Positions 33,842-42,973 are shown, counted from the first letter of the stretch. The stretch is 56,252 bases of DNA from an uncultured Bacilli bacterium (GCA_947625575.1 CANQOV010000004.1:1-56252); one strand, 5' to 3'. The notes: generated by a model not told the origin, from the sequence alone. Numbers and translations are program-made.

Positions 33842-36800
33842 TTATTTTCCACTAGAAGAATTTCTTGCATCATTTGCAGCCTGATTTTTAATAACATCTG
33901 TGTTATTTTTAATTGCATTTATTTCAACATCAATATTACGGCGTTTTTGCTCTGCAGCTCCAACAGCATCAAACGCAGTTGAAACATTAACAATTTTTTC
34001 ATTTCCAATTCCAGTTAAATCTCTAACAACTTTATTTTCTCTATGCAAAGATTGCATATTTTGAACACCAGCAGATAAAATTCCGGCCGTCTTATCACTA
34101 TATTCTATATTTTTAACATAATCTGCAACATCAAAACCACTTGCACCATGATTAAGTAAAACATTAGAGACACGTTCCTGAGCATATGCATTAAAACTTT
34201 TGCCTTCATGATTTCTTGCATATGCATCAGCATCAAGTGATCCATCAGCCTTACGATATTTGTAAGCATCCACTAAAAGATCACCATACTCTTTTTGAGC
34301 AGCTTTTTTTTGATTAGTCTTAAATATAGGATTACCACTTTTATCTCTTACATTTAATATATCTTGTGTAACAGCATCAGCTTCAAGTGCTTGATCCATA
34401 GCTGATTTTGTCTCGCCACCTTTTTTCAATTCATTACTTTGAAGTTCAAGTGCATGTATATTATGTGAAGCTCTTGTTGCCTTATCAAGTCCTACTCTTC
34501 CAAGTGTAGCCGCAGTAAGTTGTTGTTTAAATCCAACACCTTGATTATAAGCGTTTCTTCTTGTTCTATTAATAGCTTGAGTACGTTTGCTACCAGCAAG
34601 TAACTTTCCTTTTGCACCACCACCAGCACCACTCAATGCCGAAACTGCAACATTACCAAGTCCATATCCGAAAGCACCTAAACCAACGCCTAAACTACCA
34701 ATAACGCTTCTACCATTTCGTCTAGCATTTGCAAAAGCAGCACCAGCAGTGAAAGTATTTTGACCTAAGCCCATGCCGCTAGCTATAGCAACACCAGCAC
34801 CAATTCCTAATCCTGCTTTAACCATATTATAACTATCTTTAAATGTACTAGATCCTTCTACACCAAACAATCTACTAATTAAATTAGGAACAGTTTTTAT
34901 AAATACAAGCTCACCCATCATAACAAATATAATTCCAATACCAAGATCATCAAAATTAGCAGTATTAGTAATAGCAGATAAGAAAGCAGCACCAGCCTCA
35001 ATTGCAATCAACTTAAAAAATAAATCAAGATAAGCACTTGCATACATTTTTACCCACGAATTGAAATTTTTATCCGAAGGATTAATATAACTAATAATTG
35101 GAATTGGTGCCATAATTTGTAAAATCCATATTTTCAAATTACGAACTACAACTTCAACACAAATTGTAGCAAGAACAGTAACAGCTAAAATACAAAAAAC
35201 AATAGCAAACAGCCAATCCAAATCAACCTGTTTTTTCTTATATAGTGTCGCAAATTCTTCAATAGTATCAGAAGTATTTAAATAAGCTTTTCTAACACTT
35301 ACAGCAGTTGCATTATCTTTATTTCTAACTGAAGTAAAACCACTCATCAAACTTCTAGCAAAATCAATACCACAATAATTTCTACCGCAATCACTAATGA
35401 CATCAGAATCTATATATCCTTCGCCAACTAACTCTTTAACATCATTTTTTACATTTTCATCATCTGGACAAACATTTTGATACATATCAAGCACATATTG
35501 AGCTTTAGCTTTAGGAAATGTGGCTTGATCATAATTAGTAAAACCAGAATATCCAGAAGTATTTTCTCCTGTATTTAACCAACCTTCGGAATCAAATAGA
35601 ACTTCCCCGTCTTTATTATCATTAACAGTACAATTAAAACCACTTCCGGGATGACTACAAGTTAAACCTATAATAGAATTAGGGCAAACATGTCTATCCA
35701 AATTGGAAATAGCATTAGAATCAAACCAATTATTAGACCTTCTAATAACTCCGTTAGGTATATCTAAATTACTGCCACTAGGAGAAGTTATTTCAAAATC
35801 CCAGTAAACCAAACCCGAAAATTTTGGATTACTCATCTTAGTTTTTGTAAAAACAATATGTACACGATTTGAATTAGACATAGCTAAAGTATAATTACTA
35901 TTACAATATTGCCTATCACCATCTAAATTTGCTAAATTAGAATTAGTATCTCTATAAATATAATCACACTCAAATTTTTCCTCTACTTCTAAATGTTCTC
36001 CAGTATTTTCATCAACCGCATCAGAATTAAATATTACATTTTCGCAATCCTTTTTATCACCATTTTTGCATAAATAAAATTTAGAATCAAAATTAAACTC
36101 TGACATACCACTAACAATGTTTGATTCTGTATCCATTAAACACTTTGTATCATTACAAGCATCAGGAATTCCTACACTAAAACAAGCTTCTTTTCCACCA
36201 CAAGCACTAGGATTATCTTGCCACTGATACTTTCCGTCACTTTCAACAGTCATAAACTCTTTAAATCTATTAATAAAATTCGTTAAACTGCAACCATCAT
36301 AAGCCTCAGCAAAAACTTTAAACTGTGGACCCATATATTGATTATTATATGCATTATCTACCCATTGAGAGCCTGTACCATTACCATAATAATCTTCAAA
36401 TGTGCCAAACTTACCTGCAACATTCCAAGCAAGCCAAGCATATGTTTCTGCACCTTTATAAGAATCTGTACAAGATATACCTATATTAGATTCATTAACA
36501 TCAGCAGAAACATTAACTAATAAATTGTTATCATCTAAATTTAAAGTTTGATTTTTTTCAAAAATTTTATCTATAATACCACTGTCCAAAATACTATCTT
36601 CAAATCTTTTTAAAAATGGGAATATAAAACTTTGTAAAGTTAAAAGAAGTGCAAACGAAACAACTATTCTTACTAAGAGTTTACCTGCTCCAACTTGTTT
36701 ATCACTAACCTTTTCAGGGTCAATCAAATAATTTAACATTGCAACAAGAACTCTAAATAGAACAAATATTCCAACAACAACATAAATACTTGTTGACACT

Positions 36801-40447: not shown

Positions 40448-42973
40448 TTATTTTTTATCTTTTTTAGGAGATTTATAGTGTGTAGCACGAGTATCAGATC
40501 CACTAAAGGTGATTTTACTATCCTCAGCAATACTCTTTGTTTTCTTATATCCTTTAGCTTGATCGTCAATACTTCCAACACCTACACTCTTAACAACTTT
40601 ATCAATAGTTTGTAACTCAGTAAAGTCATAAGAATAAGCTTTATCACTATGATCAGTATGTTTTCCCAAATTCTTACTATAGAATTTTACTATTCTATCA
40701 TAAGAGTGAGCATTAGCCATAGTTTGAGCATCATCAATATTGCCCTCTAAAACATCTTTAATATATCTACCCTTATTAGCGGCCAATAAATCGTTATATT
40801 TTTTATCATATGCAGCAATATCTTCAGTTGTAACTGCATTACCTTTATCATCTTTTGATGTTGCACGCATAAGTGCTAAATTATCTCTCATCTGTTTCAT
40901 ACCATAATGATTTTTCTTAAGAATTTCATCTTCAATTCTGGTATCCATAGTCTTCTGTTCTTTTAAAATAGCATCATATGCACCCTCAACTCTTTCATCT
41001 CTTCTATTAGGATCATATAATCCAAAAGCAAATGTATTACCTAATACATCAATACCTCTTGTACCACTTTCATATAGTTCACGTCTTTGAACATTAGTAT
41101 TTTTAGCATAATCATATCCTTTAATAACATTACCTTTATATCCATAATATAATCCTCTTACAGTACTACTACCTGCAGTTGCTAAAGCACTAACAGTTGC
41201 TGCCATTTTATTTCCAAAAGATTGTCCACGTGTTGCTGCAATAGCTCTAGCACCATATGCACTAGCACCAGCTAAAGCACCAGCACCAGCACCTAAAGAT
41301 TTAATTATACCAAAGCTTTCTTTAAATGTTCCCTTATTATTAGTACCAAATAACTCACTAAGTAAATTAGGTATAACTTTAATAAATACTAAAATACCTC
41401 CAACAAAGAACACTTTACCAAAACCTAACTTTGTATATCTAGCTGTATTAATTATAACCATTAAAATAGTTTCTCCAGCATATATAGCAAACAACTTCAA
41501 AAATAAATCACAATATGCACTAAAATACATCTTAATCCATTTACCAAACATCTTATCTGATGGATTCATATAATTAACAACTACAATTGGTGAAATTAAT
41601 TGTAAAACCCATAATTTTAAATTACGTACAACAACTTCAATACAAATAGTAAATATTAAAATAATTGCCCCAATTCCAAATAAAACAGACATTAAAACAT
41701 CTATTGTAACATTACCCTTTTTATATTGTTTACCAAAAGCTGTATTATCTTTAGCAGAATATAAATAATTATCATAAGCACTACGACAATCACTATTCTC
41801 TTCACATGAATCAAGTGTAATAAAAGAATCCATTAATAATTTAGAAAACTGTGTACCACAAATCTTACCCTCACAACCATTAACTACACCACTACTAAGA
41901 TAACCATTACTAATTGCTTCATCTAAATCCTTTTTAACATCTACATCATTAGGACAAACATTATTATATAAGTCTTTACTATATTTACTAGACACCTGTT
42001 GCCACTGATACTTTCCATAATTAGTAAGTCCATATTCCGAAGCATTATTATCAACATTTTCCCAACTTTCAGTAGTAAAGATTACATCTTTATTAGCACT
42101 ACAACTAATACTTCCAGTTTCATTAAATACACATTTTAATCCCACTATTGAATTAGGACAAATTCCTTTATCCAAATCTTTTATTGAATCATTATTCCAA
42201 TAATTACTCTCACGAATAGAGCCATCTAATATAGATAAATACCCCTTTTCTAAATCTTTATTATATAAAGTAATATTATATTTATTTTTATCTTTAAACA
42301 TTAAATTTTCATCATTAGATTTCTCAAAAACTAAAATAATTTCATTATTTTTAGCTTTATCATAATTACTATTACATGTAATAGCACCATCATCTTTCAT
42401 ATTAGCAATATTACTATTTACATCATGAAAAACATAACTACAACTAAAACCATTTTCTATTTCTAATTTAGTTTTATCTACCCCAGTAATAACTGTACTA
42501 TCATTAGCATTATTACTAGTAGTATTAGTATTACTACTATTAGTATTGCTATCATTAGTAATACTATCATCACCTAAACTATCTTTATTTACTGAGACAA
42601 TCTTTGCTAATATATTACTTTGTAATATCATTGTTTGAACATTATTAAGTAAAGGAAATATAAAACTATTTAAAGTAAGAAGTAAAGCTAAAGAAACAAC
42701 TATTCTCATAATCATTTTTCCAGCTCCAACTTGCTTATCAGATACTTTATCAGGGTCTACTAAATAATTCAACATTGTAATAAAAGTTCTAAATAAAACA
42801 AAAATACCTACAACTGTATAAACACTACCACTAACAGCTTTTATTAAATCATTATTTACAAACAAATTATTTAATTCCATCATCATATTATAAGTACTTG
42901 CAACAGCACCCCCAAATAAAGGTCCAATAACATCTGCTGCAAAGAACTCTTTTATACTAAATAATAAAAACAT
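40448..42973 (-). CDS. VirB6/TrbL-like membrane protein (paralogue 3, shorter insert)
   Basis: same conserved blocks; Asn/Ser/Thr linker replaces first Cys module. Confidence 0.7.
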   Translation of the reverse strand: MFLLFSIKEFFAADVIGPLFGGAVASTYNMMMELNNLFVNNDLIKAVSGSVYTVVGIFVLFRTFITMLNYLVDPDKVSDKQVGAGKMIMRIVVSLALLLTLNSFIFPLLNNVQTMILQSNILAKIVSVNKDSLGDDSITNDSNTNSSNTNTTSNNANDSTVITGVDKTKLEIENGFSCSYVFHDVNSNIANMKDDGAITCNSNYDKAKNNEIILVFEKSNDENLMFKDKNKYNITLYNKDLEKGYLSILDGSIRESNYWNNDSIKDLDKGICPNSIVGLKCVFNETGSISCSANKDVIFTTESWENVDNNASEYGLTNYGKYQWQQVSSKYSKDLYNNVCPNDVDVKKDLDEAISNGYLSSGVVNGCEGKICGTQFSKLLMDSFITLDSCEENSDCRSAYDNYLYSAKDNTAFGKQYKKGNVTIDVLMSVLFGIGAIILIFTICIEVVVRNLKLWVLQLISPIVVVNYMNPSDKMFGKWIKMYFSAYCDLFLKLFAIYAGETILMVIINTARYTKLGFGKVFFVGGILVFIKVIPNLLSELFGTNNKGTFKESFGIIKSLGAGAGALAGASAYGARAIAATRGQSFGNKMAATVSALATAGSSTVRGLYYGYKGNVIKGYDYAKNTNVQRRELYESGTRGIDVLGNTFAFGLYDPNRRDERVEGAYDAILKEQKTMDTRIEDEILKKNHYGMKQMRDNLALMRATSKDDKGNAVTTEDIAAYDKKYNDLLAANKGRYIKDVLEGNIDDAQTMANAHSYDRIVKFYSKNLGKHTDHSDKAYSYDFTELQTIDKVVKSVGVGSIDDQAKGYKKTKSIAEDSKITFSGSDTRATHYKSPKKDKK

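Follow-up and report, generated by a model that had tools for sequence, protein, structure and literature searches.

Tandem extended VirB6-like genes behind candidate poly-G promoter switches in an uncultured gut Bacilli bacterium

A 56,252-nucleotide stretch from an uncultured Bacilli bacterium (GCA_947625575.1, CANQOV010000004.1:1-56252; the whole of it is hereafter called the window) carries between positions 33842 and 42973 three tandem minus-strand genes for extended VirB6/TrbL proteins of a type IV secretion system (T4SS). Each protein bears a large, divergent insert that is predicted to lie outside the cell, and the promoters of two of the three genes hold a run of nine or ten G between their -35 and -10 boxes. 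The reading that we favour, and consider probable, is that the paralogues are alternative VirB6 (stalk or channel) subunits of a chromosomal T4SS of the Gram-positive type, two of which would be switched by slippage of the poly-G tract. An earlier note on this DNA had proposed interchangeable receptor-binding or adhesin subunits that determine partner specificity, of which one is constitutive and two are switchable. That interpretation is partly supported by the analysis presented here, in that its structural and regulatory parts hold.

The VirB6-like array and its cysteine-rich inserts

The genes of the array and the parts of their products are as follows:

Paralogue 1, 33842-36937, minus strand: 1031 aa from the ATG at 36937; ectodomain of modules A and B encoded at 35222-36592
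Paralogue 2, 37117-40236, minus strand: 1039 aa; ectodomain of modules A and B encoded at 38455-39912; 5' leader of about 97 nt
Paralogue 3, 40448-42973, minus strand: 841 aa; N-terminal anchor helices, ectodomain, TrbL_4 core and a tail of about 300 aa
Ectodomain of paralogue 3, 41702-42628, minus strand: N/S/T linker and module B

All three genes are intact and their translations free of stops, and the open reading frames (ORFs) together with the alignment confirm the earlier description of three VirB6-like paralogues that combine a conserved N-terminal block with a divergent insert. The longest ORF for paralogue 1 (33842-36991) opens at a TTG at 36991 in the region of the -35 hexamer. The ATG at 36937 is the likelier start, because the N-terminus that it gives (MFLLFNIKEF) matches that of paralogue 3 (MFLLFSIKEF) and the TTG sits in the promoter. 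In the alignment of the three proteins the other two are 36% and 39% identical to paralogue 1 overall, and pairwise identity falls from 55-65% in the N-terminal block, where the 'DPxKVSDKQxGAGK' block is invariant, and 52-54% in the helical core to 30-37% in module B and 18-30% in module A or the linker. The modular layout of the inserts was read correctly in the earlier note: the module B motifs F.C.Y, CP.SI.GL, TNY and NVC..D occur in all three paralogues, module A (SCT..Y, GCS, NP.AC) is limited to paralogues 1 and 2, and paralogue 3 carries in its place an N/S/T-rich stretch (residues about 134-169) that is disordered in the AlphaFold model (pLDDT under 50).

The assignment to VirB6 is based on profile, structure and gene context. 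Pfam TrbL_4 (PF19597) matches the post-insert core of paralogues 1, 2 and 3 at E 9e-4, 2e-12 and 4e-7, and the scores of paralogue 2 (47.6 bits) and paralogue 3 (30.2 bits) exceed the curated cut-off of 27 bits; over the TrbL_4 region the core of paralogue 1 is 53-54% identical to those of paralogues 2 and 3. An AlphaFold model of paralogue 3, built from a 90-sequence alignment, has a mean pLDDT of 73.9, with block means of 75-93 in the helical membrane blocks (residues about 11-120 and 371-500). When it was ranked by an exhaustive, Foldseek-independent alignment against 48,161 representative chains, the top match was TrwI/VirB6 of R388 (7o3v_F; Z 10.8, rmsd 4.9, 242 of 261 residues), aligned over model residues 22-548 with the insert skipped, followed by DotA, with a Z of 9.2 over 243 aligned residues. 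On the whole model no more than 3 chains had a Z of 8 or above, and since helical bundles can reach such values by their arrangement alone, the TrwI/VirB6 match is weighed jointly with the profile match and the gene context. Foldseek listed five TrwI/VirB6 chains of R388 among its reported matches, at ranks 2-35 (best probability 0.82, E 0.37).

Two hydrophobic helices precede the insert and four follow it, at positions that coincide with the helices of the model, which is the polytopic layout of VirB6-type proteins (about 4-6 helices). The proteins also agree with the extended-VirB6 subfamily as it is defined in PMC12857230: they have six helices, and their central and C-terminal domains measure 317-495 and 307-348 aa. 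On the strength of TrbL_4, the structural match to TrwI and then DotA, and the neighbouring genes for a pilin, VirB3 and a split VirB4, the three are extended VirB6/TrbL proteins, and the VirB6-like core proposed earlier is thus found both in profile and in structure. Two models of membrane proteins of Mycoplasma conjugation systems and integrative and conjugative elements (ICEs), NF045848 and NF045889 (MMCAP2_0566 and Mbov_0396), also match all three proteins below their cut-offs. For NF045889, the Mbov_0396 equivalog, the scores are 25.2-31.1 bits against 70, over model positions about 168-305 of 306, and by these scores the paralogues are related to the Mycoplasma ICE CDS16 family (NF045889) yet not members of it.

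The inserts are predicted to face the outside. A Kyte-Doolittle hydropathy scan over 19 residues provided the topology, the insert is strongly acidic (in paralogue 1, 71 D+E vs 40 K+R) and the tail basic (45 K+R vs 32 D+E), and by the positive-inside rule and helix parity the insert would lie outside the cell and the tail inside. The inserts of paralogues 1-3 hold 16, 16 and 10 cysteines, five of which are invariant across the four proteins that share the insert; the even counts and the lack of CxxC pairs, the zinc-type spacing, fit disulfide-bonded extracellular domains. The point of insertion directly follows the two N-proximal anchor helices, and both the classical VirB6 topology and the R388 structure described in PMC12857230 place it outside the cytoplasm. 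The extracellular inserts of the earlier note are therefore what charge bias, helix parity and cysteines predict, and no cytoplasmic placement emerged. Over insert residues 171-370 of the full paralogue 3 model the means of 10-residue blocks run from 48 to 83, and this region is covered by no structural match in Foldseek or in the 48,161-chain alignment. The insert likewise had no usable match in the ESM Atlas and only noise against Pfam at E 1 or better, and PDB sequence profiles gave 0 matches for the insert at E 1 or better and 0 for the whole family at E 0.1 or better.

The array proteins diverge far faster than the rest of the secretion locus. Compared with the sister species (genome G001), the VirB4 ATPase piece is 91-92% identical, the VirB3-like protein 78%, the N-terminal piece of VirB4 77%, the pilin 60% and VirB6 38-39%. 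The paralogues and their sole orthologue are 34-40% identical to one another, and at that identity synonymous sites are saturated. A maximum-likelihood tree of 10 VirB6 proteins joins paralogues 1-3 and the single G001 protein in one clade (99/98 support) with an unresolved internal order. A fourth VirB6-like copy without the large insert lies on contig C32 (3150-5066; 638 aa; no Pfam match) and groups with the short VirB6 proteins of other genera. It is preceded by a gene for an extended pilin (1973-3139; 388 aa) with a signal peptide, an extracellular domain and a T4SS_pilin-like C-terminus (18.8 bits, below cut-off), and this pair (locus L019) lies apart from VirB4, between rpsP-side genes and a ClpB-like gene.

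It is a large family: a profile run against 1.84 billion representatives found 3497 proteins with E no higher than 0.001 and 563 with E no higher than 1e-30, mostly of 700-1000 aa and matching in two stretches that flank an unalignable middle. Among 151 proteins tested (150 hits listed from this search and the long-ORF translation of paralogue 1), the insert is recognisable in paralogues 1-3, in the G001 protein and in a 343-aa fragment nearly identical to paralogue 1; this restriction to the sister species and the fragment indicates that inserts turn over at about the species level.

Promoters, hairpins and poly-G tracts

The regulatory elements of the array are the following:

Poly-G cassette of paralogue 1, 36960-37008, minus strand: -35 TTGACA at 36983-36988, G10 at 36967-36976, -10 TATACT at 36960-36965, 17-nt spacer
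Poly-G cassette of paralogue 2, 40340-40386, minus strand: -35 TTGACA at 40361-40366, G9 at 40346-40354, -10 TATAAT at 40340-40345, 15-nt spacer
Promoter of paralogue 3, 43038-43066, minus strand: TTGCTA-17-TG-TATAAT, no homopolymer
Hairpin after paralogue 1, 33817-33845, minus strand: A/U-rich, overlapping the stop codon; -9.6 kcal/mol, z -4.2
Hairpin after paralogue 2, 37071-37105, minus strand: with U-run; -10.0 kcal/mol, z -1.0, weak
Hairpin after paralogue 3, 40403-40440, minus strand: with U-run; -14.7 kcal/mol, z -5.05

A homopolymer between the -35 and -10 boxes is a classical phase-variation device, in which the run sets promoter strength; examples are porA and opc of Neisseria, which have poly-G/C tracts, and vlp of Mycoplasma hyorhinis, with poly-A tracts. 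Paralogues 1 and 2 have promoters of this spacer type (a homopolymer of about 8 or more between the boxes), their spacers reading aaggtc-G10-c and ggggtc-G9, whereas the promoter of paralogue 3 is free of homopolymers, as the earlier note had it for the slippery and non-slippery promoters. Of all sigma-70-like sites in the scanned 13.5 kb, the paralogue 1 promoter scores best (11 of 12 matches). Over 41 nt the two cassettes are 93% identical, as against 63-74% for the longest coding-DNA repeats (families D1-D3). From the spacing, paralogue 1 with its optimal 17-nt spacer is predicted to be on, and paralogue 2 with a sub-optimal 15-nt spacer to be low or off.

Hairpins are present at all three places named in the earlier note; two of them are strong and that at 37071-37105 is weak. 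Its region is 86% identical to the region with the paralogue 3 hairpin. With a predicted promoter and a hairpin for each gene, every paralogue would form a transcription unit of its own, in keeping with the earlier proposal.

The two tracts belong to a genome-wide set. In the window, runs of 7 or more G give 14 overlapping matches, which form 4 tracts, vs 0.43 expected. The genome (1.154 Mb, 26.8% GC) has 34 runs of 8-11 G and 8 runs of exactly six, whereas runs of seven are absent; for runs of 8 or more the 34 compare with about 0.2 expected and at most 4 in 20 shuffles. More than half of them (18/34) form part of a 14-20 nt spacer that separates a TTGACA from a -10 box, the G-run being on the sense strand in all 18; tract length varies from 8 to 11 among otherwise similar paralogous cassettes. 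A further 12 follow just after an ATG, in two paralogous gene families, and 4 are of neither kind. Besides the two VirB6 genes, 15 of the 16 promoter-type tracts precede genes whose products have a signal peptide or an N-terminal membrane helix, as judged by eye, and one promoter-type tract precedes a glycosyltransferase operon (surface glycosylation). Runs of 9 or more G also occur in 12/18 other genomes of the family and in 4/12 outside it. By its sequence, this pattern reads as a simple-repeat phasome. The presence of many loci per genome, mostly before surface-protein genes, is a likeness to known phase-variable promoters, and poly-G phasomes are described for Campylobacter (PMC539331).

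Two further poly-G cassettes of the window, at 53943-53952 (G10) and 55545-55553 (G9) on the minus strand, read TTGACA-gaggtc(t)-G10/G9-tTATAAT with spacers of 18 and 16 nt. They precede paralogous genes for proteins of 228 and 230 aa (53197-53883 and 54793-55485, minus strand) with an N-terminal membrane anchor (MERKSDTGKILLAVLG...), which belong to no Pfam or NCBIfam family and have two further copies on contig C27. The ATG-proximal tracts comprise ten copies of the form ATG gaa aat aaa aaa aca gtc t-G9-11-caactag, on contigs C7, C8, C14, C26, C35, C36, C42, C47 (twice) and C53, and two copies of a second type, on C17 and C22. They lie upstream of ORFs of roughly 800 aa, and with G10 the short frame stops at once, as would be expected if a large gene family varied in phase at the level of translation. 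Many of the copies are at contig ends, which suggests assembly breaks there.

The sequence occurs in 8 sequencing runs from 2 studies, all of them animal gut metagenomes. A scan of metagenome contigs for the cassette pattern gave 0 matches. In 185,579 species genomes the cassette TTGACA-NN-GGTC-G8+ was found at 8 loci, 3 of them in one metagenome-assembled genome labelled 'uncultured Anaeroplasmatales' (L027, L028 and L031) and the remaining 5 as single occurrences in unrelated taxa.

The secretion locus, its descent and known systems

Directly downstream of paralogue 1 lie the pilin, the VirB3-like gene and a split VirB4:

Promoter of the pilin operon, 33781-33809, minus strand: TTGTTA-17-TG-TATAAT, after the paralogue 1 hairpin
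VirB2-like pilin, 33445-33750, minus strand: 101 aa; Pfam T4SS_pilin (PF18895) at 27.2 bits vs a cut-off of 26.6; C-terminus GTCGIG
VirB3-like protein, 33097-33423, minus strand: 108 aa, a two-helix membrane protein labelled from position and shape alone
VirB4 N-terminal piece, 32433-33116, minus strand: 227 aa; NF045975 positions 91-281; ATGA overlap with the next gene
VirB4 ATPase piece, 30640-32436, minus strand: 598 aa; NF045975 positions 296-893, E 7e-99

As VirB4 is also split in the locus of the sister species (L001; 306 aa and at least 570 aa) and in four further relatives, the split is natural. The window has 23-34% GC and its long ORFs are nearly all on the minus strand; the host, an uncultured gut Bacilli bacterium, has a genome of 1.15 Mb with 27% GC that is estimated to be 94% complete. 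dnaE and the pyruvate phosphate dikinase gene flank the locus, which has no integrase next to it. VirB4 is single-copy in the genome, and its ATPase piece was found in 17/18 other genomes of the family at 66-92% identity and in 3/12 genomes outside the family at 61%, 31% and 27%. A VirB6-like gene is present in 15/18 family genomes and in 0/12 outside; among the matches listed it lies 2-3 kb upstream of VirB4, and it is encoded with VirB4 and the VirB3-like gene in the window and in 5/5 of the relatives' loci that were read, all of which keep this gene order. A single-copy VirB4 that is 66-92% identical in 17/18 genomes and always beside VirB6 is the pattern of a vertically inherited core gene, and by this evidence the system is a vertically inherited chromosomal one of a monoderm, not of the Rickettsiales type.

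Four relatives' loci (L020-L023, from G002, G004, G014 and G012) have the gene order of a protein of about 315 aa, pilin, extended pilin, VirB6 gene or genes, VirB3-like, VirB4-N and VirB4-C. Each of the four has one or two VirB6 genes, of 626-1090 aa. No run of 6 or more G or C is present in L020-L023, and none of 7 or more in L001-L006. Extended pilins are frequent in the family. Those of L020-L023, 115-257 aa long, have a signal peptide, contain cysteine in the N-terminal domain and resemble VirB2 at the C-terminus, which ends GTCGIG in two and GGTCL in a third. Derivation of the VirB6 insert from these extended pilin genes was considered and rejected, there being no phmmer match at E 10 or better. 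The only VirD4 (578 aa) is encoded on contig C6 within 13823-18473 (L018), followed by a sortase (202 aa) and a large serine recombinase (681 aa), and this stretch, distinct from the VirB4 locus, may be what is left of an integrated element.

Among known systems, arrays of extended VirB6 paralogues are documented in Rickettsiales (virB6-1 to -4 of Anaplasma and Ehrlichia; PMC3556328; PMC7648143; Bao et al. 2009 via PMC12857230). The two share several tandem, enlarged VirB6 genes and a small genome, and VirB6 is among the parts of the machine that vary most between strains; surface exposure has been proposed. However, those bacteria are diderm obligate intracellular organisms with a VirB-type machine, whereas the host here is monoderm, and going by their descriptions their extensions are mostly C-terminal and repetitive, unlike the central, cysteine-rich and non-repetitive domain found here. 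DotA of Legionella Dot/Icm (PDB 9ngy, the DotA-IcmX protochannel) is likewise a VirB6-class subunit with a large extracytoplasmic domain, but it is single-copy, belongs to a diderm type IVB system and has IcmX (VirB5-like) as its partner; its match to paralogue 3 covers the helical core only (rmsd 6.6, identity 12%).

The nearest named families for the VirB6 core and VirB4 are those of the Mycoplasma ICE module, in which CDS16 is VirB6-like, CDS17 is VirB4 and CDS13/15 are VirB3-like (PMC12857230; NF045889, NF045848, NF045975). Both machines are minimal, no VirB1- or VirB8-like gene having been recognised at this locus. They differ in that the scores here are far below the equivalog cut-offs (25-31 vs 70 bits for VirB6; 332 vs 590 for VirB4) and that the Mycoplasma module is on a mobile element with a DDE transposase according to PMC12857230, whereas the present system is chromosomal and vertical, with a VirB2-like pilin and huge inserts. 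Patescibacteria, as described in PMC12857230 and PMC12102498, offer the likeness of a small-genome monoderm with a relaxase-less chromosomal system, PF18895-type pilins and an exposed component present as a divergent array. Their array is one of pilins and not of VirB6, although extended pilins also occur in the relatives of this genome, and essentiality has been shown there (PMC12857230, PMC12102498). VirB2 in monoderms is stated in PMC12857230 to be known only from Patescibacteria, and the VirB2-like pilin of this Bacilli family falls outside that statement.

Proposed mechanism, alternatives and neighbouring features

In the mechanism that we propose, two N-terminal anchor helices would hold each protein in the membrane while the acidic, cysteine-rich domain of 300-490 aa projects outside, where classical VirB6 has its large extracytoplasmic loop, and four further hydrophobic helices would form the VirB6 core ahead of the basic tail of about 300 aa. 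Paralogue 3, on its ordinary promoter, would supply a constant baseline. In the cassette shared by paralogues 1 and 2 the run of 9-10 G would set the distance between the -35 and -10 boxes, so that slipped-strand mispairing during replication should alter the spacing and, in a heritable way, raise or lower the expression of either gene independently of the other. The machines of a clonal population would in that case bear differing combinations of ectodomains. Most likely the ectodomain would touch a partner cell or a surface, with antibodies or phages as the selective pressure. In a bolder form, suggested by analogy with Patescibacteria and which we hold only tentatively and think rather doubtful, the T4SS of this family of genome-reduced gut Bacilli would be an organ of cell contact that the bacterium cannot do without, and the VirB6 ectodomain would replace the missing VirB5 tip adhesin. 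With the ectodomain tripled and two copies behind stochastic switches, a clone of this species would keep re-targeting or re-disguising the machine's tip. If true, this would be the first phase-variable core subunit of any T4SS and the first simple-repeat phasome in this uncultured lineage.

Several observations weigh against the proposal of switchable, outward-facing subunits. The TrbL_4 score of paralogue 1 (19.1 bits) is under the 27-bit cut-off, and Foldseek of the paralogue 3 model gave no match at E 0.001 or better. For helical bundles, a Z below about 13 may come from an arrangement that many of them share. In the R388 structure described in PMC12857230 VirB6 is mostly above or outside the membrane, so that the simple layout of six helices may be mistaken, and likewise the placing of the tail. 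A stand-alone AlphaFold model of the insert from a 4-sequence alignment was unusable (pLDDT 41), and no fold or family could be recognised for the insert, so that a role as adhesin is conjecture. The C-terminal tail diverges as much as the inserts (pairwise identity 16-23%); diversification is accordingly not restricted to the outside, and the paralogues may differ in their intracellular partners too. The weak hairpin after paralogue 2 makes read-through from paralogue 2 into paralogue 1 possible. As to slippage itself, 4 metagenome runs available as thin contigs (depth 3-4, pieces of 150-400 nt) had none that bridges the G10 or G9 tract, one ending inside G9, and the genes for MutS and MutL are present; missing mismatch repair was therefore rejected as a cause of slippage.

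The last two points are among those that could speak for the G-runs being fixed promoter elements or artefacts of sequencing or assembly, with paralogues 1 and 2 as redundant duplicates under ordinary regulation. The thin contigs give no observed length variation, none of them spanning a tract, two-colour Illumina chemistry yields poly-G artefacts, and for 5 of the 34 tracts the contig ends less than about 150 nt away. However, both tracts of the array lie deep within a 56-kb contig and in a conserved cassette, all 18 promoter-type runs are on the sense strand between the boxes, similar cassettes differ in tract length (8-11) and spacer (14-20 nt), the absence of tracts of length 7 points to selection for long runs, and runs of 9 or more G recur in 12 of the 18 other family genomes, and we regard this explanation as highly improbable. 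On another view the system would serve conjugation, having been left behind by an integrated element or being shared with one, and its VirB6 variants would govern mating-pair formation or surface exclusion between strains. This would suit the VirD4 beside a sortase and a large serine recombinase on contig C6 and the Mycoplasma conjugation and ICE proteins as nearest named families. It is hard to reconcile with a locus between dnaE and the pyruvate phosphate dikinase gene that no integrase adjoins, or with a single-copy VirB4 conserved at 66-92% in 17/18 family genomes and always next to VirB6, and no relaxase was found in the 94%-complete genome with PF03432 or PF02486, the only two families tried; we consider it improbable.

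A closer competitor, which we deem unlikely but deserving of more weight than either of these, accepts the same array and switch and takes the driver to be evasion of secretory antibodies or phages, not targeting. The ectodomain would be an immunodominant or phage-bound part that an important machine exposes, and switching between paralogues would allow escape, with paralogue 3 keeping the machine working. Behind the remaining poly-G promoters are genes for proteins that are secreted or anchored in the membrane and an operon for surface glycosylation, which is what evasion phasomes usually contain; the inserts turn over at the species level, and the samples that hold the sequence are animal gut metagenomes. 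Against this, the non-switchable paralogue 3 also has module B, so the cell never hides all copies, and the divergence of the cytoplasmic tail is left unexplained. Targeting, evasion of antibodies or phages, or both may drive the array.

The favoured reading, of alternative VirB6 subunits with two of them under poly-G control, bears on several questions. That the insert is predicted to lie outside, evolves much faster than the rest of the machine, is tripled and is tied to a probable stochastic switch together argues for an exposed, selected face of the machine. As the role of the large extra domains in extended VirB6 proteins is stated in PMC12857230 to be not known, the array gives a testable handle on extended VirB6 function. 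It also bears on how small-genome gut Bacilli that keep this core secretion system interact with other cells. The lineage would use a poly-G phasome like those of Campylobacter and Neisseria, and since assemblies are prone to break at tracts of this kind, its metagenome contigs have to be read with this in mind. Within the literature searched, no phase-variable VirB6 array has been published for a gut commensal that is a monoderm. By titles and abstracts, no paper was found that links VirB6 or another core type IV secretion subunit to phase variation; there was nothing on phase variation in RF39, a label unconfirmed for this host, and RF39 with type IV secretion gave unrelated work.

Three other genes near the locus were recorded. 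An Xre-type regulator of 115 aa with an HTH_3 domain (30251-30598) lies between VirB4 and the pyruvate phosphate dikinase gene as the sole plus-strand gene nearby, and it possibly regulates the secretion operon. Between dnaE and paralogue 3, a 101-aa ORF without family match (43097-43402, minus strand) overlaps the end of dnaE and is closed by a hairpin at 43088-43110, directly before the paralogue 3 promoter. At 26668-27171 (minus strand) the window encodes a 167-aa toxin of the CptIN family of type III toxin-antitoxin systems (NF047359, 164 bits vs a cut-off of 90).

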